From the IMG/VR virus record IMGVR_UViG_2778261035_000005: a DNA stretch of 64,000 bases; one strand, given 5' to 3'. Made by a program: the position numbers and the translations under genes. Positions 6,050 to 64,000 of the stretch are shown here, piece after piece. Below the pieces are notes generated by a model, which saw only the letters and a program-made list of their open reading frames with translations, did no database searches and was not told the origin of the DNA. The DNA comes from a virus. Its lineage: Duplodnaviria; Heunggongvirae; Uroviricota; Caudoviricetes. The number at the start of each line of letters is the position of its first letter. Position 1 is the stretch's first letter.

Positions 6050-6142
6050 TAGTAGAAAAAAATATTTACATCGGTAAAAATAAGTAGGTACTTACTTTAT
6101 GGTGGGCAAGGATAGCCCACCAAATCAAGGAGCATATTCAAC

Positions 6143-10171: not shown

Positions 10172-10373
10172 TTTAGACATTATTTATATGGCTGTGAGGT
10201 TTAAAATGCGATCTCACAGCCGCAATCATAGGGATATATTAGTGAGTTACTAGATACGAATTTGAACAGCCGTTAAACGGTATATACATAGATAGGTAAG
10301 TATATACCTATAATTGAAAGGAGAAGTGTGATATAAATCCGCCATCCCGATTTGACTTTTCATGGAGGAAAAC

Positions 10374-12890: not shown

Positions 12891-12908
12891 GAAAACAAGT
12901 TGTTTCAG
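12891..12908 (+). promoter_or_regulatory. Conserved motif GAAAACAAnTTGTTT, copy upstream of parA
   Basis: One of four near-identical copies, each 12-33 bp upstream of a start codon. Confidence 0.45.
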
Positions 12909-15195: not shown

Positions 15196-15256
15196 CCTGT
15201 TTCTGTATATAAATAATAAGTAACTTATTAAATATATATACGGAAGCAGGTCTTTT
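15196..15256 (+). terminator. Long-stem rho-independent terminator (GCCTGCTT family)
   Basis: About 16-bp stem CCTGTTTCTGTATATA / TATATACGGAAGCAGG (two G-U wobbles) around an AT-rich loop, then TCTTTT; related copies at 61365 and 63129. Confidence 0.6.
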
Positions 15257-15367
15257 AAAAGACACCCACCAGAACAACTCCCTTCCGTTTCCACTTCCAA
15301 AAACTGCCACCAGTCGCTATCATCCGCTCATTGTGATAAGTAAGTAACTACCTACCAGGTGAGCCAC

Positions 15368-16117: not shown

Positions 16118-16136
16118 GAAAACAATTTGTTTAAAA
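16118..16136 (+). promoter_or_regulatory. Conserved motif GAAAACAATTTGTTTAAAA, copy upstream of the helicase
   Basis: Identical to the copy at 43931-43949; ends 16 bp before the helicase ATG. Confidence 0.45.
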
Positions 16137-20539: not shown

Positions 20540-20664
20540 TGGTGAATGCCGGGCAGACTATAAGCCCGGCATCTTCGTATAGGGAACTATTGCGCCTAAA
20601 ATGATAAGTAGATACATACTTAGTTTTTTGTAAGAATACTTTCATCTGTTAGCTAGGAGTTGGT

Positions 20665-21441: not shown

Positions 21442-21508
21442 GCTCTCTGTGTGTCGTTTTTTACGCAAACAATGATAGGTAAGCACAAGATTATTTCTGG
21501 CGGTAATT

Positions 21509-23673: not shown

Positions 23674-23822
23674 TTCCATACATCTCATTAGCTTTTATGG
23701 GTGGCTTTCTTATCGGCTTCGGCATCTGTCGTGATTTAATTAAGCAGGAACTTAAAACCAAAACACTGTGCATCGGAAAGCGTGTGTATCGGGTAGTTCA
23801 TGAAACAAAGGTTAGAAAATGA
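23670..23822 (+). CDS. Small membrane protein (50 aa), paralogue of 23295-23474
   Basis: Same architecture and similar sequence (GFLIGFGIC...RVYRVV versus GFFIGIVVM...RIYRIV). Confidence 0.4.
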   Translation: MIPYISLAFMGGFLIGFGICRDLIKQELKTKTLCIGKRVYRVVHETKVRK

Positions 23823-24109
23823 GCAATTTAACTTCTTGGGACTGGTGGTTGGCCACCTATTTCTTAGCGGCCGGAGTCGCATTCGCCTTTTACGTAGGTC
23901 AGTTAGTCGTAAAACTGTTGCTGATTAAATTTGCTAGTCATAAACGTATCGATGATGGTCTGTGGCGTCTTGGCACCCTGGTGGAAACTCGCTACGGGCA
24001 ACTTAAGGAGAACGAAACCATTACTATCCAAGCGAAACGATTCACTGCCACCATCACAAGAACACCTAGTCGTAGAGTGGCCTTGATCAAAAAAGTCGCA
24101 ACCGAATAA
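23819..24109 (+). CDS. Small membrane protein (96 aa)
   Basis: N-terminal TM helix plus soluble tail; third member of the chain of overlapping small genes. Confidence 0.45.
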   Translation: MSNLTSWDWWLATYFLAAGVAFAFYVGQLVVKLLLIKFASHKRIDDGLWRLGTLVETRYGQLKENETITIQAKRFTATITRTPSRRVALIKKVATE

Positions 24110-24888
24110 AAACACAATGATAAGTATTTACTTACTTATCTTTTATGTATAAGATGACTTTGTTTTCGTTGAGACGCGACTGTTTGAACTTAAATACAAG
24201 TGCAAACGAAGAAGTCTATCTGGCAGTAGCCTAATAAGCCAAACACCAGCGAGGTCAGTTTCCAGCCTCGTTACCGAAATGGGACACACTGAGCGAGTGT
24301 GATTGCAGAACGCAGGAGGGAACATGAATGTTCCCTCCGATGAAGTAACAGAATGGGCGGTCAGTATATTTTCAACTCATATACGACTCCCGGATTCTTA
24401 TCCAATGACCGCCCATCCTGTTACGTCATTTTGTTCAATTATGTCGTTTATACTGGGTTAAAAAGCGGCGACGTAGCCCGGCTGGTATGGTTAGCCAGCA
24501 CACAACGTTGAGGCCATTACATTTTTATCAATTCTAAGGTTCTATTCACAGAGATACCGGCGAGCGTTGATATGTAACATGTTGGGCAAACATTCAATCG
24601 GAGTAGTGGCCTCAACGTTGTGAAGACAGGATAGTTGTGTAGGTTTAACCACTGTTGCCATTGGTGCCTGTTTTCACAACAAATGATTCCATACATCACA
24701 TTGTATAAATTACAAAGTAAGTGCAGTCCTCAGAAACATCATCTACTTAAAGATTTTGCCTTCTACTATTGAGCGAAGTCGAAAGCGTCTGGCACTAACG
24801 AAAAGTGCAAGTAGCGGTGCGTTTCCTGGCAGAAACTAAACCGTCGCGATTGGCACTGTTGAGTAATAAATACTGGCAGTGCCGAATT

Positions 24889-24963
24889 GATGGTGTAGCT
24901 CAGCGGTAGAGCAGTTGGCTGTTAACCAACTGGTCGGTGGTTCGAATCCACCCACCATCGCCA
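24889..24963 (+). tRNA. tRNA-Asn (anticodon GUU)
   Basis: Hand-folded cloverleaf: acceptor GATGGTG/CACCATC, D-arm GCTCAGCGGTAGAGC, anticodon loop CTGTTAA, T-loop TTCGAAT, 3-prime CCA. Confidence 0.8.
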
Positions 24964-24965
24964 AT

Positions 24966-25041
24966 GCCGGTTTAGCTCAGTTGGTAGAGCACCTGCCTTG
25001 TAAGCAGGATGTCAGCGGTTCGAATCCGTTAACCGGCACCA
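24966..25041 (+). tRNA. tRNA-Thr (anticodon UGU)
   Basis: Acceptor GCCGGTT/AACCGGC, D-arm GCTCAGTTGGTAGAGC, anticodon loop CTTGTAA, T-loop TTCGAAT, 3-prime CCA. Confidence 0.8.
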
Positions 25042-25254
25042 ACACAACAGGAAAGAGCATTGAGAACCGCCGAGACTGCCCTGTTTGAAGCGTAAGTCCG
25101 TGCAAACGTCATACAGTGCTCTTTTCGTTGTGGTGAATGCGGCTAAGCGCACGCGGGGAAATGGTTATATTGATCCTTTGTGATGACTATTGGCTCCGTC
25201 CACGGTGGATAACCAGCCAAAGGACACCGGGAAGCACCCGGCACCACAACAATT

Positions 25255-25341
25255 GGAGAGTAGGGAGCATGGTGCTCAAGCGGTCTTGAAAACCGTCCCA
25301 TTGCGCAAGCGATGATGGTTCGATTCCATTACTCTCCGCCA
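25255..25341 (+). tRNA. tRNA-Ser (anticodon UGA), type II with long variable arm
   Basis: Acceptor GGAGAGT/ACTCTCC, anticodon loop CTTGAAA, variable-arm hairpin GCGCAAGCG, T-loop TTCGATT, 3-prime CCA. Confidence 0.65.
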
Positions 25342-25525: not shown

Positions 25526-26806
25526 TTAATTAAAACCGAATGAATCAAGTTCTGCTTTTAATTTATCGACCATTTTTTCAACTTCAACCACAATTTCGCC
25601 AATCACCTTTTCTTTGTGTTGATTAGAGCTAAGTTCAAAATAGGCGTTATATAACGCATAACGAGACAGAAAATTTCTAATCTCATTAGCGGGTCTAATG
25701 GTGTAGCCATCGGTTAACACGATATCGGTCTGTCTAGAGTGCTTCTCGTTGAGTTTTATTAGCCGCTTTATCTGTTTTTCATCCTTGAGCACTATCACTT
25801 TGTTAGCTGCAATTTCAAGCTCCCAGCCGACAAAATAACGCAGCGTAGAATTTAATTTAGCCACTTCCTCGGCTGCAATTTCCATTTTCAGCTCAATGTA
25901 GTTTCGCATATGCATAGGTAGGTCATTAAATCTTTGCAGCAAATGTTGTCGGCAGGGGTTGTTGTAAGACCAAAGAACTGCAAACGTAAGCCTATGATAA
26001 CAGCTTATCGCATTGGTATTACAGGCCGAATCACCAACAATCATGCGATCAACATAAAACTCTACGTCTTTTTGGTATTCTTTATTGAATATATCAGCGG
26101 CATAGGTGTCCAGGTAATGAACTTTAGATATTGCATCTTCAAAGAAAAGTTCATTTTCGAAGAAGTTGTATTTGTTCAGGAGACGATAAAGTTTCTTTGC
26201 GTCGTAGGTTTTGCTATTGTCGACATTAAGACCAAAAATAGCAATCAGCAGACTTACTTTTGGACTAATGCTGTTGCGCAGTTGTTCTATGTAAGATCTC
26301 TTTTCACTATCCGCAGATGACGGCAGATAGAAGTCTTTATCTACATAATTTAGAATTAAAATAATGTGGTTAACATACTTAATATAAACAGGGTTTTTTG
26401 TTGCATAGTAATAAACGCCCTTGACGACTTTTATATTCAATTTCAAATTGTACTGACTATCATCCAGTAAGGTTTTGTTAACATCCTCAAGTAATTTATT
26501 ATGCTGTTCAAGTAATATGCCGTACCATTCCTTAAAAGAAGATTTTTTCATTTCAAGAAGCGAAGCCGCCGTCAGCCTGGTCGCTCTCATTGCCGCCTTT
26601 GCACTATGCCTTGCCTCATAAGCGGCCCATGCTGTGGCTAAAAAGGCAAGTGAAGTAGCAAGCGTACCTATAACCTCTACGTTTTCCTTGACGGTATCCC
26701 AGAAAATAATCATCACTGTCCCAAGTATGAGGATTAACAAAACAGGCATTTTATCAGTGTCTTTGGTTAATTTTGAAACTGAATGATACCTAATCGACCA
26801 TACCAT
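25526..26806 (-). CDS. Hypothetical membrane-anchored protein
   Basis: Up to 426 aa; two N-terminal TM helices and a ~350-aa cytoplasmic domain with no motif I can place; AT-rich codon usage; start may be 26749 instead. Confidence 0.55.
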   Translation of the reverse strand: MVWSIRYHSVSKLTKDTDKMPVLLILILGTVMIIFWDTVKENVEVIGTLATSLAFLATAWAAYEARHSAKAAMRATRLTAASLLEMKKSSFKEWYGILLEQHNKLLEDVNKTLLDDSQYNLKLNIKVVKGVYYYATKNPVYIKYVNHIILILNYVDKDFYLPSSADSEKRSYIEQLRNSISPKVSLLIAIFGLNVDNSKTYDAKKLYRLLNKYNFFENELFFEDAISKVHYLDTYAADIFNKEYQKDVEFYVDRMIVGDSACNTNAISCYHRLTFAVLWSYNNPCRQHLLQRFNDLPMHMRNYIELKMEIAAEEVAKLNSTLRYFVGWELEIAANKVIVLKDEKQIKRLIKLNEKHSRQTDIVLTDGYTIRPANEIRNFLSRYALYNAYFELSSNQHKEKVIGEIVVEVEKMVDKLKAELDSFGFN

Positions 26807-27080
26807 TTCAGCTAGTTTAAAGCTGTCTTGCCGGTTCTAGTGTGTCAACCTCACAAAGCCATTTCTGCTTAGTAACCAAACACATTAAATAGGTAATGAC
26901 TCACCTATTCATTTTAGCTATAGTCACGACACTTACTCACTTGAAAGGACTCTATATGGGAAACAAACGTAAACAGGCGCGTCGCGCAGCTCGTCAGGCA
27001 GTGAAGTCAAAGCCACGCATCCACGGCTACGAAATTGACACAATCATCGTTAATGAACAGCAGTTGCACGAGGTGAAGTG

Positions 27081-27510: not shown

Positions 27511-28065
27511 TCAATCTTCCCTTTGTTTTGGGTAGTGTTGTGTTCGTATCGCATAGGAAGCTCCGTCATTTAAATAAGTTAGGCCACGCTCTTGTGTAAA
27601 TCTCTTCACATATCTCTTGTATGTGGCCATCAGTTCTTCGCGTTCTGCCGCAAAGAATAAAATCTGTATGCCTTCATTGTCGGCAACTTTGAGCATTAAG
27701 TCAACTAAAGTACCGTAAAGGTATTGAAGTTCACCTAAAGTAAGATTAAAAGACCCTTCGGGTTTGGCAAATACGTTAATTGGCTCTTCCGCTCCAAGAG
27801 CGACATTCTGGAGCTGTTCTTGCTGCCTGTCAAGTTGAATCATGTCCACAAAACTAACGACAGATACACACAACCCATAAACATCAGCACCTAACATATT
27901 ATGCATAGTTTCTGCGGCAACAGGATCTAAAGAAGGAGGGCAAAAGACTAAACGGTATCTAGCCTTACGAGCTTCATTGCCAGAGAAAACAAAGTCTATA
28001 TCTAAATATGACAGATCACCCGGCAATGAAGCCAAACCAGGTGTAACCAACTTATGCAAGTGCAT
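27511..28065 (-). CDS. Hypothetical protein
   Basis: 184-aa ORF on the opposite strand; no recognisable motif; a 47-aa ORF (27413-27553, minus) overlaps its 3-prime end. Confidence 0.45.
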   Translation of the reverse strand: MHLHKLVTPGLASLPGDLSYLDIDFVFSGNEARKARYRLVFCPPSLDPVAAETMHNMLGADVYGLCVSVVSFVDMIQLDRQQEQLQNVALGAEEPINVFAKPEGSFNLTLGELQYLYGTLVDLMLKVADNEGIQILFFAAEREELMATYKRYVKRFTQERGLTYLNDGASYAIRTQHYPKQRED

Positions 28066-28332
28066 CTGTCTCGAATCCCTCTTTATTAGTATAAGTTGTC
28101 TTATTGTACCCTACCAAACGTTTATATGCATTGTTATGTATTATTTTGATTTTCAATATTACCTCCTAGAACGAAGGGTAGATTTCAAAAAACGCACCCT
28201 CAATGATTCCATACCTACTATGTATGGAATCATTACTGAAAATGAGTTACTTTTACTCTTGATCCTATAAGAATCTATGCCTAATATACTGTTTACTTAT
28301 ACAGTGCATCGGCGTAACTCGGTGATTGTCAT

Positions 28333-29436
28333 ATGAAAAATAGCTTTGACAGAGCACGCGCTGCGGAGAACACCTCAAAAGAGGCGATTGAGTATCTCGA
28401 AAGAGCATCTCAAATGCAGGCCGTTATGATCTCCCAGGTCAGCAATGACATGAGATTCTCGGACGCATTCATGTTATTCACTCGCTTATCTCTGCTGATA
28501 ACAAGACGTCGGCCAGAGATCGCTGTTCATTGTATTTTGATACATGTTTTGCCGCACATTGCCGATGTAAAAGTAAGTGATATTAATAGGTTCATGGTGA
28601 ACCAACTGGTCAACCCACTAATACTGGATGGCAAAATTGTTATGGGTCGCCGCGTTTTCTCTCTGATGAAGCAGTTCCTCAGCTGGTGCGCCTTCCAGGG
28701 GATGATCGACGTGTCACCGTTAAACGATATGTCACTTAACAAAGTTGCCGGTGGCGCAAAGCCCACACCTCGCGAGCGGAAGCTAACCGACGCAGAGGTA
28801 TGGGTGTTCTGGAATATATGGGACTACTTCAATGTGTGTGCTGGTACAAAATGGGCGGCCAGGCTATGTCTTGTATCCGCAAGACGACCTGACGAAGTAC
28901 TGCGGGCTAAAAAAAGTGAGTTCAACCTCCAGCGTGGGGTTTGGAATCAAGGCAAGAGAAACAAATCAGCCCGTGAGCATTCTCTGCCTTTAAGCACATT
29001 AATGCGCACATGCATTGAAGAGTTATTCGAATATGGTAAAGGCAGCCAGTGGCTTGTGCCTTCGAATAAAAAAATCGGGAAAGATCTTCCGATGTCTAAA
29101 GTGGCAATAGCCCAGGCATTACGCCGTATCCTGGAACGACCAGAACTGATGGAGCTTGAGCCATTTACACCACGAGATTTGCGTCGTACTGCGCGTAGTT
29201 ACTTCCCAGCATTAGGCATAAGCCAGGAGGTATCACGTAAAATCATGAACCACAGTCTTGAGGGGATAGATCGGGTCTACGACCGGCACGATTATATGGA
29301 CGAGATGCGAGACGCCTTAGAAAGTTTCTCGACGTACATCGCATCAATCGTAGAGCAACCGGATTTAGACGAAATTGACCACAAATTCAAGGGAGATCGT
29401 CTATCGACAGAGCTTATTCGTGTAAATTTTTCATAG
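28333..29436 (+). CDS. Tyrosine-type site-specific recombinase / integrase
   Basis: C-terminal catalytic region with R...H..R...Y arrangement (RRPDE, TPRDLRRTARS, HSLEGIDRVYDRHDY). Confidence 0.7.
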   Translation: MKNSFDRARAAENTSKEAIEYLERASQMQAVMISQVSNDMRFSDAFMLFTRLSLLITRRRPEIAVHCILIHVLPHIADVKVSDINRFMVNQLVNPLILDGKIVMGRRVFSLMKQFLSWCAFQGMIDVSPLNDMSLNKVAGGAKPTPRERKLTDAEVWVFWNIWDYFNVCAGTKWAARLCLVSARRPDEVLRAKKSEFNLQRGVWNQGKRNKSAREHSLPLSTLMRTCIEELFEYGKGSQWLVPSNKKIGKDLPMSKVAIAQALRRILERPELMELEPFTPRDLRRTARSYFPALGISQEVSRKIMNHSLEGIDRVYDRHDYMDEMRDALESFSTYIASIVEQPDLDEIDHKFKGDRLSTELIRVNFS

Positions 29437-29817
29437 AGACTTTATGGCCTCAACAACCTTTTGTGATGCGCCTTTCTCTTTACCGAATCGCTCGTTATAT
29501 GCAGCAAGAACCTGTTTTTCGTCCTCGTTAAGAGGAGCAGTGCCTTCTTTGTATAAAAATGCTGCGAGTTCGGGTTGGCGTTCTTCCAGCACCATCATCA
29601 TAAGACGACTTGGCTCAATACCCAGTGCCAGCGCCAGCGGACGAACCTTATCGATAGGCAAAGGAATTTTGCCGCTTTTAATTAAAGAAAGGTTGTTGGC
29701 GTTTTTATACCCAATTGTTTTGGCTATCTGGGCCTGGCTCATAGGTGAGGATTCAATCAACCCTGCGATAAAAGCAGCGTAGCGACTTTCTATAAATTCA
29801 ATCTTGTTGTCAGACAT
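29431..29817 (-). CDS. XRE-family helix-turn-helix regulator
   Basis: HTH segment MSQAQIAKTIGYKNANNLSLIKSGK; convergent with and overlapping the recombinase 3-prime end. Confidence 0.65.
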   Translation of the reverse strand: MSDNKIEFIESRYAAFIAGLIESSPMSQAQIAKTIGYKNANNLSLIKSGKIPLPIDKVRPLALALGIEPSRLMMMVLEERQPELAAFLYKEGTAPLNEDEKQVLAAYNERFGKEKGASQKVVEAIKSL

Positions 29818-30379
29818 TGTTACAACCTTTGCGCGTTCAATTCTCTCTGGTAAGTGCTTACCGATATTACATCAAAGGTTAGGGTTGTAAAGCTATTATC
29901 ATTTTTTTCGGCAGGCACTTTAAAGACCGGACAAAGACCAATGCATGGTGAAAAACTAGCCCCAAATAGGTAAGAAAATTAACTTGCATCTAATATGGAT
30001 GTATTCAGTATTGATATAAATTTTAGTAGTATTCCTTACAATAGTATAAGTAAGAATGGATTGATTGAATGAACACCACTATTTCCAGCCTAATAGCTCT
30101 TGAGATCGGACACGTACAAAAATTAGCTGATGAGTGTGTAGCTGACATCCTCACCGAGCTACCGAATGAGCAGATTGAGGTTGGTGTGAATGACACAACT
30201 GGCTTTATATTCGAACTTAACAACAAACGCTTCACGCTTATCAATACCGGCTCCGGGTCTTTAGCCGTCAGAACCTGTTAATCCCTCTTCTACCTGCGCG
30301 AATGGCTTAGTTCCCTGTTCGCGCAGTGCTACATTAAACACACTAGTAAATAATTTGTTTTCATAACAAAGGATTAGCC

Positions 30380-32488: not shown

Positions 32489-32583
32489 TTAGAATAGCCT
32501 TAATGATAAGTAATCACTTACGATATTTGATGGTATATTTATATAAGAAGTTGAAAGCTCATTAGAAAACAAAGGAAAAACGC

Positions 32584-38818: not shown

Positions 38819-39271
38819 ATGAACACCGATATTTACGAGAAAATAATGTCTGATCTCGAGTTTGACAGAGACAATCTGGAAGACGTCTGGCGTAAACAAC
38901 CTCGCCTGTTGATGGAGTATGGTTCAAAGCTCGCCCATGCAGAAAGAAGTGTCGCAGAGGCAAAACTTAACCTTGAAGCTGTTGAAGCAAAGCTATACGA
39001 CACAGAGCGTAAAAACTTGAGTATGAATGGCATTAAGTTTAACGAATCTGTACTAGACGCTAAGGTTAAAACAAACCCACAGTATCTGTCTAAACGGCAG
39101 AAGTTGGATGAAGCACGGCACATCGCAGACATATACAAACATGCTGTCGCCGCCTTTTCGCATCGCCGAGACATGATCGTTCAGGCGTCGAAGATGGCTA
39201 TCGTTGAATTAGAGCGATTAGGCTCTGAACGCTTTATTACTCCCCGTTTATTTTTGATAGATAATAAGTAA
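38819..39271 (+). CDS. Hypothetical coiled-coil protein
   Basis: 150-aa ORF; TGATATAAT extended -10-like element about 40 bp upstream. Confidence 0.5.
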   Translation: MNTDIYEKIMSDLEFDRDNLEDVWRKQPRLLMEYGSKLAHAERSVAEAKLNLEAVEAKLYDTERKNLSMNGIKFNESVLDAKVKTNPQYLSKRQKLDEARHIADIYKHAVAAFSHRRDMIVQASKMAIVELERLGSERFITPRLFLIDNK

Positions 39272-39367
39272 GTACTGATCTATCATTTAACAGCTCGAAA
39301 GAGCCACGAATGAACGAAAGCCCAACGCGCATAGCGCCATCGGCCAAATCACAACAAGGAGAAACAC

Positions 39368-42743: not shown

Positions 42744-42748
42744 ACACA

Positions 42749-42772
42749 AGGCGTCCACAGGACGCCTTTTTT
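42749..42772 (+). terminator. Rho-independent terminator (AGGCGTCC family)
   Basis: AGGCGTCC-ACA-GGACGCCT followed by TTTTTT. Confidence 0.75.
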
Positions 42773-42835
42773 ATCTCTTGAAAATATATAAGTACTTACT
42801 TATTATTTTCGCATAACAACCACATAGGAAAACAC

Positions 42836-43930: not shown

Positions 43931-43949
43931 GAAAACAATTTGTTTAAAA
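43931..43949 (+). promoter_or_regulatory. Conserved motif GAAAACAATTTGTTTAAAA
   Basis: Identical to the copy at 16118-16136; ends 12 bp before the ATG at 43962. Confidence 0.45.
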
Positions 43950-44387: not shown

Positions 44388-44442
44388 TCGCCTATTCATA
44401 ACTAACAAAATAAGTAAACACTAACCACAAAAGGAAAAACAC

Positions 44443-44718: not shown

Positions 44719-44757
44719 GTTTACAGTAAAGTTTATATAAGTTAGTATTTACCTATC

Positions 44758-48121: not shown

Positions 48122-48375
48122 CCCTCCAGATCGTATATTGGCGTAGATAGAATCTACGCCTCCTCAAAATAGCTCTCATAGCGTTCTACAGTGATCCTGT
48201 CTTATTTTTAGTCATACAGACAAGCAAAGTTGCGCCACAATAAATAGGTATATACTTACTTATAAATTTTGTATATTAAGGCGCTCGTTTCATTCCTAAC
48301 ATACCGTTATGCATAGTTGTTTACCTCCTCATTGCTCTTAAAATTTGTATCAAAATAACCACAAAGGAAAAACAC

Positions 48376-52919: not shown

Positions 52920-52992
52920 TTTCATTGATAGGTAAGTGCTTATCTATTAACATGGGCCACTATATTTAGTGGCCCTCTTTATTTGGTGATAC

Positions 52993-56635: not shown

Positions 56636-57505
56636 ATGAACTTTACCAAACTGACTGACCACCTGAAACTTGCCACCGATCGTCTCATTGGATTTAAGCC
56701 AGAACCATATGAGTTGCATGAAGGTCATGGTGTAGCTACTGAAAGTATTTACAAGATGGTCGATCAGTTTCATGAACTCTTCCAGCATCCGAGACGCGTT
56801 ATGCCGACACCAGAGCTGCTTCGTCTCCGTGCAAGCCTGATTCATGAAGAAGCTGTAGTGGAAGGTATTCCAGCCGCAATGAATGGGGATATTGAGCAAC
56901 TGCTGGATGCAATGGCCGACTTTTTATACGTTGGTGTTGGTACGATGGTCGCCATCAAAGGTGGTATTTCTACCGGCATGACCTATTACACGCAGGAACA
57001 GAGCATTGATCGCTTTATGCAGACAATTTTTGTGCCCGGTAACACTGTTTTCGATGATATGGCAATGCCATTTCAGGAAGCTCGTGAGGCGTCATATATG
57101 CTCGAAGAGCTGGCAGATAAACTTGAGAACAAGACTGTTAAGGATTCTGAGCTGATTCAGGAACTGCGCCGTGTCATGAACAAAATCTATGTGGCGTGCA
57201 TGATGACCTATCGACTGGCTGATTTCCTCGGTATCAATGTAGTCGAGCTGGTTGGCGAAATTCATCGGTCTAACATGACAAAATTATGGCCTGCTGATGT
57301 CGAGGAACGTCGCCAGGCTGTGGCCAACTGCAAATACGACTCTTCAGACCTGGGATTTCGCCATGCTGATGGTACCGATAAGATGATCGGTTTTCGAATT
57401 TCCGATGGAAAGATTCTGAAGTCTCCAACCTATAGTGATGTCGATTTATCCTCCTTTGTTGAGCAAGCTAAAGCCTCAGCAATGTACGGAATGATCAAAA
57501 AATAA
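56636..57505 (+). CDS. Tandem MazG-like nucleoside triphosphate pyrophosphohydrolase
   Basis: Two consecutive all-alpha MazG-like segments with E..E...E...D acidic patterns. Confidence 0.5.
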   Translation: MNFTKLTDHLKLATDRLIGFKPEPYELHEGHGVATESIYKMVDQFHELFQHPRRVMPTPELLRLRASLIHEEAVVEGIPAAMNGDIEQLLDAMADFLYVGVGTMVAIKGGISTGMTYYTQEQSIDRFMQTIFVPGNTVFDDMAMPFQEAREASYMLEELADKLENKTVKDSELIQELRRVMNKIYVACMMTYRLADFLGINVVELVGEIHRSNMTKLWPADVEERRQAVANCKYDSSDLGFRHADGTDKMIGFRISDGKILKSPTYSDVDLSSFVEQAKASAMYGMIKK

Positions 57506-57648
57506 TTGTAGGTAGTTATCTATCTATGTATATTGTGTTGGCGCGTTAAATTCCTGAAACAACTATTCGTTTTGGTGGCCTATGGCCACCATTTTTTTAT
57601 CTATCTGGCCTTGTACCCTCAATAAATGTAAACTCACGCAATGAATAA

Positions 57649-58779
57649 GTGATTACTTATCTTTGTGAGGTTTTTGTGTCACTCCTTTTGAATCGTGAGC
57701 ATACGAACGGTCAGGTAACAAACGCATCGTATGCAAAAGTTATTGAGACGGTGCTTAAAAGCGGCGTGCAGGCTGATGATCGCACAGGCACTGGTACTTT
57801 AAGCACCTGCTACGTTCCCTCTTACTACATGCTTACTGGTGGGACTGTGCCGCTTATTTCTGGAAAGGCGGTAAATCTTAAGCCACTGCTTGTCGAACTT
57901 GAGTGGTATCTGAAAGGCACGGGCAACATCCAATTTCTCAAGGATAACGGCGTTAAGATTTGGGATGCATGGGCCGATGAGAATGGCGATTTGGGGCCAG
58001 TTTACGGTAAGCAGTGGCGTCGATGGGAAGATACCCGCATCGTGAGCCATAGTGAATATCTGAGCAAGATCGCTACTTTCCGTGAACGCGGGTACAAAGT
58101 CGAGGGATACCTAGGTATCAGTGAAGATCGCGTAGTGCTGTCCCGTGAAATCGATCAGCTACAGCGTATTGTCGATACACTGCGCACGAACCCTACCGAT
58201 CGTCGCATCATGCTTAACGCATGGAACGTAGGCGAGCTTGAGGATATGAAACTGCCACCTTGCCACTTTGTCTTCTCTTTGTGGAGTCGTGAGCTTGATT
58301 TTGAAACCCGTTTAACGATGGCAACTGACATTGGTCTTCAACACAGTCGCCTCGGTTACGAGTCTATCTACACCAAGATGCTATACGATCTGGAGATGGA
58401 CGGCAGTGTTACTGAAGCTGAACTGGATGAACTTGGAATCCCCAAACGCATCCTCAACTCCTGCCTCGTACAGCGTAGCGTAGACACTTTTGTTGGTATG
58501 CCATTCAATATTGCTGGCTATGGCATTCTCACTCATTTTCTCGCGAAGATTACGGGTCACATGGCCGGTGCATTTGTGCATTTTGGCTTTGACGTGCATT
58601 TGTACAATAACCACATGGAAAGTGTGCGTGAGCTAATGCAACGACAGGCTCCAGAGCATTCAGATCCGGTCGTTATATTCCCTAATGAATGGTCTGAGCT
58701 GGATGATTTCAAATGGGACGAGATTCTTATTCTTGGCTATGCCCCTCTACCGTGGATCAAGGTTCCAGTGGCGGTGTGA
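57649..58779 (+). CDS. thyA: Thymidylate synthase
   Basis: DRTGTGT, YGKQWR, RRIMLNAWN and catalytic LPPCH motifs; no in-frame ATG near the 5-prime end, so the start (GTG 57649, GTG 57676 or TTG 57688) is uncertain. Confidence 0.85.
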   Translation: MITYLCEVFVSLLLNREHTNGQVTNASYAKVIETVLKSGVQADDRTGTGTLSTCYVPSYYMLTGGTVPLISGKAVNLKPLLVELEWYLKGTGNIQFLKDNGVKIWDAWADENGDLGPVYGKQWRRWEDTRIVSHSEYLSKIATFRERGYKVEGYLGISEDRVVLSREIDQLQRIVDTLRTNPTDRRIMLNAWNVGELEDMKLPPCHFVFSLWSRELDFETRLTMATDIGLQHSRLGYESIYTKMLYDLEMDGSVTEAELDELGIPKRILNSCLVQRSVDTFVGMPFNIAGYGILTHFLAKITGHMAGAFVHFGFDVHLYNNHMESVRELMQRQAPEHSDPVVIFPNEWSELDDFKWDEILILGYAPLPWIKVPVAV

Positions 58780-62329: not shown

Positions 62330-62512
62330 CGTTCCCCTACTGAAAATAAAGCCCATAGAGAGCTTTATAGTGCTGGGTAAGCCAATCACATACCCAGCAC
62401 CACAAAAACGCGCCAGAGAGCTTCTTGTTCGCATTTCTGGCGCGTTTTATTTGATTACCATACATAAAATCAAATGCAAAAATAGGTAATCACTTACCTA
62501 TCGAGAAAGAAG

Positions 62513-63291: not shown

Positions 63292-63522
63292 ATGTCATAC
63301 CCGACTAATGTCGTTGCGCTCGTAGAGAGCGATTTTCTGGCCCAGGCTCGTGAAATGATGAAAGATCGTGAGCAGGCTTTCAACTTGTACGAATGGGCAA
63401 TTAAGTGCTTGCATCTTGGCGAGCATCGCGAACTTGTTGAACAGCTTTTAGGTGAGTTGATCAATGAGGTGTTTGCCTTGAATGTTCAACTACATGGTAG
63501 AGAAAATAATCAATCACAATGA
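63292..63522 (+). CDS. Hypothetical small protein
   Basis: ATG at 63292 after AAGGAAA; 76 aa. Confidence 0.4.
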   Translation: MSYPTNVVALVESDFLAQAREMMKDREQAFNLYEWAIKCLHLGEHRELVEQLLGELINEVFALNVQLHGRENNQSQ

Positions 63523-64000
63523 TAGATAAGTACAAACCATTCATAAAGTGAATTGTAAGTGCTAAGATCTGATAGTTTCCAGTCGTAGACTGGAGACTCG
63601 ACCTGATGGGTGGGGGTAAGCGTCACTGGCGTCAGGTTTAAAAAAGCTCACTACCAGCGTAGAACTGGTGCCGTTTAGGTGTCGGGGAAGGGGGAACCAA
63701 AGTGAGCAGAGACAAGGGTCACTTTATGATTGTCGAGTCTGGGGTGTTTCGAGAGGTTGAATCCAGTACTCCCCTTCATAAAGTGTGGGAAGATCTCGGT
63801 TCTGGGGTGCTGTCATCCATAACTTCCCAAGTCTAAGCTGGCAGTAGACTTAGACCATAACTTTTCAGGTTATGAAACGACCAGGTTGGTGAGAGATTTT
63901 TATACTCACCTCCCTGGGAGAGTATTACCTGAAAAGACAACCTCTCACTTCGTTCGAGGTGAACTTCACTCACTTCGTTCGTTCAGTTCAGGTTTATAAA

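Follow-up and report, generated by a model that had tools for sequence, protein, structure and literature searches.

A dispersed 20-bp palindrome as candidate operator of lysogeny control in an SSU5-type phage-plasmid of Escherichia coli

Introduction

P1 is a plasmid prophage of ~ 100 kb whose repressor, C1, lacks a RecA-cleavable domain and is thought to control, as one repressor, many scattered operators before lytic operons and not a single immunity region. The P1 operators are asymmetric 17-mers bound by a 283-amino-acid (aa) monomeric protein unrelated to the helix-turn-helix (HTH) proteins of the Cro/CI type, and the structural, tail-fibre and lysis genes of P1 depend on the Lpa activator. 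Here we describe a short palindrome that recurs before the genes of a 64,000-nucleotide stretch of tailed-phage DNA (IMG/VR record IMGVR_UViG_2778261035_000005, the whole of which is called the window below), part of an Escherichia coli phage-plasmid of the SSU5/pSLy3 type. By analogy, the dispersed C1 operators of P1 and the gp71 'stoperators' of mycobacteriophage L5 appear to be its closest functional counterparts, with membership in neither family. The element resembles P1 in being a plasmid prophage of ~ 100 kb with scattered sites before lytic operons and a candidate repressor devoid of a cleavable domain. It differs from P1 in that its sites are perfect-consensus 20-bp palindromes, that the candidate is a 128-aa HTH protein of the 434/P22 type and that sites are also found before structural, tail-fibre and lysis genes.

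The L5 gp71 sites are 13 bp long, asymmetric, orientation-dependent and monomer-bound, and they mediate genome-wide silencing of the prophage. With them the present sites share a number of ~ 25-35 copies per genome and a location in short intergenic gaps, including gaps inside operons (the TerL/portal junction, Cyrano 2020, in the related phage-plasmid Cyrano), but they are symmetric, about one third of them coincide with recognisable promoters, and a roadblock role is only conjectured here. According to one report, repressors of the L5/L1 type bind multiple asymmetric operators (PMC1934351). The consensus of the present sites is instead a perfect palindrome, and the candidate binder is a protein of the Cro/CI type and not a homologue of C1 or gp71.

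With the lambdoid phages 434 and P22 the locus has in common the DNA-binding fold, a palindromic operator with half-sites one helical turn (~ 10 bp) apart, and a repressor gene nearby that is divergent from the early lytic operon and has a site on its own promoter. However, lambdoid operators are confined to OL/OR while ~ 29 copies are spread here over 110 kb, the 128-aa candidate has no S24 self-cleavage domain, and the half-site is made of two TnAG tetramers; this is not a typical lambdoid switch. The KorA/KorB system of plasmid RK2 is similar in its plasmid-wide short palindromic operators, located in promoter regions and co-ordinating backbone expression. KorB is a ParB homologue, whereas in the present family the ParB-like genes are essentially silent in the lysogen and the genes that would be controlled are lytic genes of the phage. 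Neither the motif nor the regulation of SSU5-group phage-plasmids was found described in the literature, and as this coverage was incomplete, a prior description is possible; a 2024 review gives no lysis-lysogeny mechanism for the SSU5 group.

The window is 94% identical to Escherichia phage Cyrano, an SSU5-like phage-plasmid of E. coli LF82. It corresponds, with 8 single-nucleotide polymorphisms, to positions 28103-92102 of the plasmid pWP4-S18-ESBL-07_2 (E. coli, circular, 110,167 bp), and it covers 64 kb of the ~ 110 kb of the element. Genes for tail, tail fibre, lysis and plasmid maintenance are followed by a long replication, recombination and nucleotide-metabolism block with nearly all genes on the plus strand. 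Gene order is kept among Salmonella phage SSU5, Cyrano, a Klebsiella relative (Kp) and the window. The comparison further included a second Klebsiella relative with a divergent HTH allele (KpVar) and two Acinetobacter baumannii lineages, Ab1 (record NZ_CP156934.1), a distant relative whose DnaE is 37% identical, and Ab2. The two Acinetobacter plasmids are 65-72% identical along their whole length and thus offer no natural 'immunity swap' between them. Clinical E. coli, Klebsiella, Salmonella Typhi, Yersinia pestis and Acinetobacter commonly harbour phage-plasmids of the SSU5/pHCM2/pMT1/pSLy3/pKpn types, which may bring resistance genes with them.

Results

A recurrent palindrome of fixed geometry

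A previous reading of the window, made from the sequence alone (the sequence-only reading), had noticed an inverted repeat TAAGTA-N-TACTTA, with a variant TAGGTA...TACCTA, at a dozen gene starts. The repeat is real and occurs far above chance. Indeed, the window holds 4 exact copies of TAAGTA-N(0-12)-TACTTA and 2 of TAGGTA-N(0-12)-TACCTA, each against 0.01 expected, and the 20-mer ATARGTAAGTACTTAYCTAT is found with at most 3 mismatches at 12 loci where dinucleotide-preserving shuffles predict 0.01. Listing every ATARGTA in the window yielded the consensus, a perfect two-fold palindrome of 20 bp, ATARGTAAGT/ACTTAYCTAT, which is matched at 15 or more of its 20 bases by 23 window positions (0.5 expected) and at 16 or more by 12 (0 expected). 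A weight matrix trained on SSU5 and Klebsiella sites only, and hence independent of the window, scores at least 12 bits at 20 window positions (0.07 expected) and at least 8 bits at 22 loci. In terms of full sites, ~ 17 are present in the window and ~ 29 in the whole 110-kb plasmid, well over ten copies of one operator consensus. When one genome per species was scanned with the exact pattern, 7 matches were obtained, 2 of them in Kluyvera contigs of ~ 100 kb and the rest at chance level.

Every copy falls into one 20-bp register in a gap-free alignment, and all 20 columns are informative. The consensus displays a TA step every 4 bp (ATAG GTAA GTAC TTAC CTAT), and TAAGTA can be read in it at positions 2-7 or 6-11 and TACTTA at positions 10-15 or 14-19. 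Exact hexamer matches have a spacer of 2 or 6 and no other values, because the 4-bp periodicity gives two readings of each hexamer. The spacer of 2 to 8 bp described by the sequence-only reading is thus replaced by a geometry fixed at 20 bp; a variable-spacer model was rejected, as the gap-free alignment covers all copies, and since the spacer is not variable, the argument that the element is unusual for a fixed-geometry operator falls. The half-site itself consists of two TnAG tetramers in a row (TAGG/TAAG in the enteric elements, TCAG/TCAG in Ab1 and TTAG/TAAG in Ab2), the 4-bp periodicity of which has no obvious link to the helical repeat.

The 12 full sites noted earlier all exist, with small corrections of their coordinates: 24131 becomes 24120-24139 and 42788 becomes 42784-42803, while 15335, 20603, 32507, 48243 and 57644 are each off by 1. 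At 21475, 44409 and 63524, which had been called half-sites, as well as at 30046, only the left half matches. Overlooked in the count of a dozen were the strong sites at 26889, 39264 and 44737 and the weaker ones at 29846 and 57508. All copies are compiled in Table 1.

Position of the sites relative to genes and promoters

The sites are intergenic at 19 of the 22 loci, as compared with a non-coding share of 13% for the window, and several lie in predicted promoters. The transcription units behind them encode tail fibre, lysis, DNA replication, recombination and nucleotide metabolism and, outside the window, the structural operon, where short gaps are also occupied, for example by a site overlapping the TerL stop codon; early-type and late-type genes are preceded alike. 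From the end of the palindrome to the next start codon the distances are 43, 62, 12, 41, 58, 84, 32, 177, 112, 45, 15 and 11 nt, with four sites only 11-15 nt from a start codon and one ~ 770 nt upstream of a tRNA cluster. A placement 20-60 bp before start codons, as proposed initially, is therefore true for about half of the sites, the rest being outside this range. What is upheld is the more general view of a recurring regulatory element before genes, tied to phage-specific control.

At several plus-strand promoter matches the palindrome adopts a shared register, in which the -35 hexamer abuts the palindrome, the palindrome fills the 17-bp spacer and its last TAT opens the -10 hexamer. The same spacer-filling layout is seen at Cyrano 3527/SSU5 3544 and at Cyrano 57446/SSU5 55695. 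Overlap with core promoters is well supported for this subset of sites, and we infer it for the rest. Furthermore, the Acinetobacter and metagenomic lineages keep the distal arm intact and show the gene-proximal one relaxed to TATACT or TGCTATAAT, and TAnnnT is found there 7 times on the sense strand versus 0 on the antisense strand.

A candidate repressor gene and its expression in the lysogen

The gene at 29431-29817 encodes a 128-aa protein with weak Pfam matches to HTH_19/HTH_3. Residues 12-80 of its AlphaFold2 model are confident (predicted local distance difference test, pLDDT, ~ 87), and Foldseek matches this model with P22 c2 (root-mean-square deviation of 1.5 Å over 61 residues), 434 Cro and repressor, C.AhdI, SinR, HigA and Stl. 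A Pfam search found no peptidase or S24 self-cleavage domain in the protein. Homologues of this HTH protein adjoin a tyrosine recombinase gene in 995 PLSDB plasmids, from Escherichia, Klebsiella, Enterobacter, Salmonella (pHCM2), Yersinia pestis (pMT1) and Acinetobacter, and in every lineage examined. The minus-strand promoter predicted for the HTH gene, TTTACA-16-TAATAT at 29891-29864, is overlapped at its end by the weaker motif copy at 29846, and the Klebsiella HTH gene has an orthologous copy, ATCGGTAAGTACTTACCATA, 30 nt upstream. A motif copy on the predicted HTH promoter would be the usual layout for negative autoregulation.

Published RNA sequencing of the Cyrano lysogen (PMC9928086, S1 table) gives a value of 96 to the HTH gene, CYRAN_45, against a floor of 5. 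Other regulators of the element are lower, namely the FljA-like CYRAN_114 at 18, the ParB-like CYRAN_119 and CYRAN_120 at 5 (4.99) and 9.5, and the small winged-helix protein CYRAN_37 at 6. None of the genes directly behind a site with at least 17/20 matches exceeds 22 in this dataset, and of the 13 genes that pass the cut-off set by the authors, 49, the HTH gene is the only one with an upstream site. The Cyrano counterpart of the 20604 site is weaker and stands before CYRAN_34, a gene of moderate expression in the lysogen (PMC9928086).

In SSU5 the int-HTH module is gone while the sites are kept, and the literature found treats SSU5 only as a phage and not as a resident plasmid. Loss of the module fits a derivative that would no longer be able to repress itself. 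The HTH protein had at one point been excluded as binder given that SSU5 lacks it; this exclusion was withdrawn, as a lytic derivative would lose its repressor module.

Two neighbours of the HTH gene deserve mention. A LexA-box-like sequence, TACTGTTTACTTATACAGT, lies at 28287-28306, ~ 27 nt upstream of the tyrosine recombinase gene, and a second LexA box, outside the window, precedes an S24 peptidase gene; Cyrano is inducible by ciprofloxacin. The minus-strand gene at 27511-28065 encodes a 184-aa protein with no Pfam match and has no motif upstream, and its Cyrano orthologue CYRAN_43 is by far the highest-expressed prophage gene in the lysogen (~ 7000 against the floor of 5; PMC9928086).

Conservation and respelling of the palindrome across lineages

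Cyrano and SSU5 carry 25-26 sites at orthologous intergenic positions. When orthologous intergenic regions of as many as five genomes, Cyrano, SSU5, Kp and KpVar included, are aligned, the palindrome stands out as a conserved island between diverged flanks. The sites at 6080 and 62482 are both kept in Cyrano and SSU5, the former at the orthologous position, and at 10292 the core is kept in Cyrano, SSU5, Klebsiella and KpVar although its flanks have diverged. Moreover, in an unbiased tally of 6-mer inverted repeats the TAAGTA arm ranks second in every enteric genome.

More distant relatives have a palindrome of the same build in another spelling. Ab1 uses TCAGTCAGT/ACTGACTGA, with 36 sites before genes, and Ab2 uses TTAGTAAGC/GCTTACTAA; a metagenomic lineage with the same synteny has AGTCA-N4-TGACT, and a Photorhabdus relative and KpVar show close variants of the enteric motif. 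Since two spellings are found in one host species, A. baumannii, it is the element that encodes the specificity, rather than a host factor. One residue of the recognition helix, Asn39 versus Arg39, was considered as the sole determinant of GTAAG versus GTCAG, but this rule is broken by the Photorhabdus relative (Lys39, GTAAG) and by the metagenomic lineage (Lys39, AGTCA).

Discussion

Proposed mechanism

On balance, we favour the reading that the palindrome is a dispersed operator of the HTH candidate repressor encoded at 29431-29817, which would hold the prophage silent; we infer the binder, repression as the direction of its effect, and the route of induction. In this model an HTH dimer made in the plasmid-prophage state would occupy ~ 29 symmetric operators and cover the -35/-10 spacer, the -10 hexamer or the transcription start of most lytic promoters, leaving the prophage silent, while the weaker copy on its own promoter would limit repressor synthesis. 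Copies between the genes of long operons might serve as extra roadblocks, which is conjecture. As for induction, we speculate that SOS-driven transcription from the LexA box at 28287-28306 could run through the recombinase gene into the convergent HTH gene. Such a route is possible because the protein has no self-cleavage domain, because ciprofloxacin induces and because a LexA-box-like sequence precedes the convergent recombinase gene.

A wider version would extend these features to the SSU5 supercluster from Enterobacteriaceae to Acinetobacter, with shared silencing by a cleavage-free 128-aa repressor on ~ 30 operators, co-diversifying immunity groups and LexA-box induction; we regard this extension as tentative and rather doubtful. 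The same guarded weight applies to its further element, that by analogy the sites may be a symmetric counterpart of the L5 'stoperators', with operators both on promoters and between the genes of operons.

Defining the operator consensus and naming a candidate repressor opens lysogeny control in this plasmid-phage family, which is clinically widespread, to direct testing. If the model is true, the regulon could be predicted, in terms of genes silenced and genes escaping, and immunity groups could be typed from sequence. It would also explain the lytic behaviour of SSU5 by the absent repressor module, and provide a compact repressor-operator pair with natural specificity variants.

Several observations weigh against assigning the palindrome to this HTH repressor. 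The expression difference between genes with and without a site is a trend only (Mann-Whitney p = 0.09), and silence in lysogeny would fit an activator-dependent lytic promoter equally well. The A/C difference in the half-site is not followed by any recognition-helix residue alone, E. coli and Klebsiella elements share the motif although their HTH proteins are only 56% identical, and all lineage-specific proteins co-vary with the motif, so that the assignment of the binder is circumstantial. As regards promoters, TAnnnT at the palindrome end in enteric elements is symmetric (13 versus 14 on the two strands), and for this reason the directional promoter evidence of the window comes down to the few sites where a -35 hexamer can be recognised. 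The predicted -10 positions given by a sigma70 weight matrix are scattered relative to the palindrome. Finally, a conserved extended -10-like sequence, TGTGATATAAAT, at 10327-10338 upstream of the holin gene and kept in five genomes, would set the centre of the 10292 palindrome near -42, a position that is classic for activators and not shared by the other sites. A fixed-register -10 as directional signal in enteric elements was left as unsupported given the symmetry of TAnnnT, and sigma70 weight-matrix positioning was dropped as arbiter because of the scatter.

Alternative binders and alternative roles

These last points lead to the activator as the alternative that has to be weighed most seriously, though we think it unlikely: the palindrome would be bound by an activator that the phage encodes, or would belong to a phage-specific promoter, and would serve to switch lytic genes on, standing in for the -35 element or aiding it as in the Lpa-dependent late promoters of P1 or the MotA boxes of T4. 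Most sites lack a good -35 hexamer, the 6 nt upstream being merely A/T-rich, about half of them end in a -10-like TAnnnT, the genes behind them are silent in the lysogen, the holin site has the position just described, and a simple scan of window positions 1-60000 yields 61 sigma70 consensus-like promoters against ~ 94 expected from shuffles. However, TAnnnT is alike on both strands of the enteric elements, the position of the sites relative to predicted -10 elements is not uniform, and some sites are in good sigma70 promoters such as TTGAAA-17-TATTAT (10/12), where a dimer over the spacer and the -10 should block polymerase. Moreover, sites stand before every functional and temporal class of genes, early and late, and one copy lies across the start site of a promoter whose gene is expressed in lysogeny. 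Non-enteric relatives encode a sigma70_r2-type protein between the CobS/MoxR-like ATPase gene and dnaE (L018:15101-15766, Ab1 79382-80065 and L031:5348-5971), but no homologue of this gene was detected in the enteric elements, where the motif is present, and a phage sigma factor was rejected as reader on that ground; perfect two-fold symmetry would also be unexpected for a promoter recognised by a sigma factor. The sigma70_r2-type gene of the metagenomic lineage directly follows a motif copy. Of the phage-specific promoter element suggested by the sequence-only reading, the core-promoter overlap at several sites stands and recognition by a special polymerase or sigma factor is disfavoured, an operator for a dimeric protein being preferred because of the two-fold symmetry, the good sigma70 hexamers around some copies and the location before every temporal class of genes. 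A still less probable binder is another DNA-binding protein with a non-lysogenic role, for instance one of the two ParB_N proteins encoded outside the window. Dispersed palindromes are regulated in RK2 by a ParB homologue, KorB, and in Cyrano, SSU5 and the Acinetobacter relative the parB-like operon is closely preceded by a motif copy. Nevertheless, expression of the two Cyrano orthologues at or barely above the RNA-sequencing floor suggests that these proteins are unavailable in the plasmid state, the sites are almost exclusively before lytic genes, and partition-related binding could equally well fall to a second palindrome, AAACAA-N-TTGTTT, which has a copy before the ParA-like gene.

The sequence-only reading had also raised an RNA-level hairpin, and a short hairpin in 5' untranslated regions, acting on stability, processing or translation, perhaps with an FljA-like RNA-binding protein, was considered. 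Such a role is suggested by the sites that lie 11-15 nt before a start codon, and hence would be transcribed from any upstream promoter, by copies that fold at -7 to -8 kcal/mol, and by a Flag1_repress/FljA-family protein encoded outside the window. Yet there is no sign of selection for pairing. Sense-strand mismatches of the G·U and A·C types number 25 versus 23 in the plasmid, 19 versus 22 in SSU5 and 6 versus 20 in the Acinetobacter relative, and complementary pairs are as numerous as after random exchange of left and right halves between sites (p 0.26-0.90), so that neither compensatory covariation nor a G·U preference is observed. The predicted RNA stability of the copies ranges from 0 to -8.3 kcal/mol, with four of the ten folded copies no better than shuffles at 0 to -2.4 kcal/mol, some of the best consensus matches (39264, 44737, 15336 and 6080) being no better than shuffles either, and an Rfam search matched no family. 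Both halves are conserved as sequence, would-be loop positions included, and at several sites the palindrome is upstream of the predicted start point. The RNA hairpin was rejected on these results and we consider it very improbable; the conservation of the sequence of two half-sites one helical turn apart is the signature of a dimeric DNA-binding protein. As to the FljA-family regulator itself (L007:5581-6105, minus strand, with counterparts in Cyrano as CYRAN_114, in SSU5 and in Klebsiella), it matches Pfam Flag1_repress with E 1.5e-84; this family comprises RNA-binding post-transcriptional repressors with an Hfq-like C-terminus, and in non-enteric relatives Hfq-like genes adjoin dnaB. Scarcely credible, in turn, is a chance product of AT-rich intergenic sequence or a set of recombination sites for the adjacent tyrosine recombinase. 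The intergenic DNA is AT-rich here and the recombinase gene does adjoin the HTH gene, but dinucleotide-preserving shuffles expect 0.01-0.07 where 12 loci and 20 matrix positions are seen, and Markov shuffles likewise give essentially no matches, which disposes of AT-richness alone. Likewise, the synteny of SSU5, Cyrano, Klebsiella and the window is intact despite ~ 30 symmetric sites, and this conserved order makes a recombination-site role unlikely.

Coordinates and neighbouring features

Table 1. Copies of the palindrome, predicted promoters and the candidate repressor gene in the window. Matches are counted against the 20-bp consensus and bits refer to the weight matrix, unless indicated otherwise.
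Feature	Sequence	Position	Context	Matches and score
Palindrome	ATAAGTAGGTACTTACTTTA	6080..6099	43 nt upstream of tail-fibre gene (6143)	16/20, 21.1 bits
Palindrome	ATAGGTAAGTATATACCTAT	10292..10311	upstream of holin/lysis cassette (10374)	18/20, 27.1 bits
Weaker motif copy		15209-15235	near 15336 site	
Palindrome	ATAAGTAAGTAACTACCTAC	15336..15355	12 nt upstream of gene 15368	17/20, 23.5 bits
Palindrome	ATAAGTAGATACATACTTAG	20604..20623	41 nt upstream of gene 20665	15/20, 16.3 bits
Left half-site only	ATAGGTAAGC	21475..21494	just upstream of gene 21497/21509	14/20, <8 bits with full matrix
Palindrome	ATAAGTATTTACTTACTTAT	24120..24139	after gene 23819-24109; ~ 770 nt upstream of tRNA-Asn/Thr/Ser	17/20, 25.7 bits
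Palindrome	ATAGGTAATGACTCACCTAT	26889..26908	divergent gap 25526-26713(-) / 27081(+)	17/20, 16.7 bits
Candidate repressor gene, 128-aa Cro/CI (XRE)-type HTH protein		29431-29817, minus strand	convergent with tyrosine recombinase gene 28333-29436, 6-nt overlap	
Weaker copy with perfect 14-bp core GGTAAGTGCTTACC	TCTGGTAAGTGCTTACCGAT	29846..29865	28 nt upstream of HTH start codon	15/20, 11.6 bits
Two left half-sites	ATAGGTAAGA (29966); ATAAGTAAGA (30046)	29966..30065	divergent region toward 30069/cobT-like genes	
Weak copy	ATAAGTAATCACTTACGATA	32506..32525	58 nt upstream of CobS/MoxR-like ATPase gene (32584)	14/20, 8.9 bits
Predicted promoter	TAGATA-17-TATCAT	39258	spacer filled by 39264 palindrome	
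Palindrome	ATAAGTAAGTACTGATCTAT	39264..39283	upstream of gp32-like single-stranded DNA-binding protein gene (39368); conserved in 5 genomes	19/20, 25.9 bits
Predicted promoter	TTGAAA-17-TATTAT	42778	best promoter-like match in 40-60 kb stretch	10/12 (promoter hexamers)
Palindrome	ATATATAAGTACTTACTTAT	42784..42803	between -35 TTGAAA (42778) and -10 TATTAT (ending 42806)	17/20, 26.5 bits
Left half-site	ATAAGTAAAC	44410..44429	upstream of gene 44443	14/20
Predicted promoter	TTTATA-16-TATCAT	44732	contains 44737 palindrome	
Palindrome	ATAAGTTAGTATTTACCTAT	44737..44756	inside predicted promoter TTTATA-16-TATCAT	18/20, 24.9 bits
Palindrome	ATAGGTATATACTTACTTAT	48244..48263	upstream of SbcD-like gene (48376); conserved island, diverged flanks	17/20, 27.0 bits
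Predicted promoter	TTGATA-17-TAACAT	52925	52928 palindrome shifted by 3	
Best copy	ATAGGTAAGTGCTTATCTAT	52928..52947	upstream of nrdA (52993); conserved in 4 genomes	19/20, 27.6 bits
Degenerate copy	GTAGGTAGTTATCTATCTAT	57508..57527	after gene 56636-57505	15.1 bits
Palindrome	(ATGA)ATAAGTGATTACTTATCTTT	57641..57664	11-15 nt upstream of thymidylate synthase gene (57676)	17/20, 17.3 bits
Palindrome	ATAGGTAATCACTTACCTAT	62482..62501	11 nt upstream of adenine methyltransferase gene (62513)	18/20, 26.5 bits
Weak copy	ATAGATAAGTACAAACCATT	63522..63541	end of gene 63292-63522	15/20, 12.9 bits

Some features adjoin individual sites. A conserved RNA-type hairpin, GGTGGGC...GCCCACC, is located at 6100-6122, directly downstream of the operator-like site and before the tail-fibre gene, and it shows compensatory changes in Cyrano and SSU5. 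The three tRNA genes downstream of the 24120 operator-like site (Asn-GTT, Thr-TGT and Ser-TGA) are clustered at 24889-25341. A terminator lies at 42748-42768, directly before the 42784 site. Between the operator/-10 region and the nrdA start, a terminator-like and likewise conserved hairpin, GGGCCACTATATTTAGTGGCCC followed by a T-run, occupies 52954-52975; transcripts from the predicted nrdA promoter would begin inside its stem and therefore escape termination.

The element also carries a second dispersed palindrome, (a/t)AGAAAACAAnTTGTTT, with 9 exact copies of AAACAA-N1-TTGTTT in the plasmid and 8-11 in Cyrano, SSU5 and Klebsiella, which is the top-ranked inverted repeat in every enteric genome. 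Three of its copies are in the window (12893-12905, 16120-16132 and 43933-43945) and six more elsewhere in the plasmid, with copies found 19-48 nt upstream of the genes for the ParA-like ATPase and the DnaB helicase and of gene 43962. This palindrome is probably the site of another regulator.

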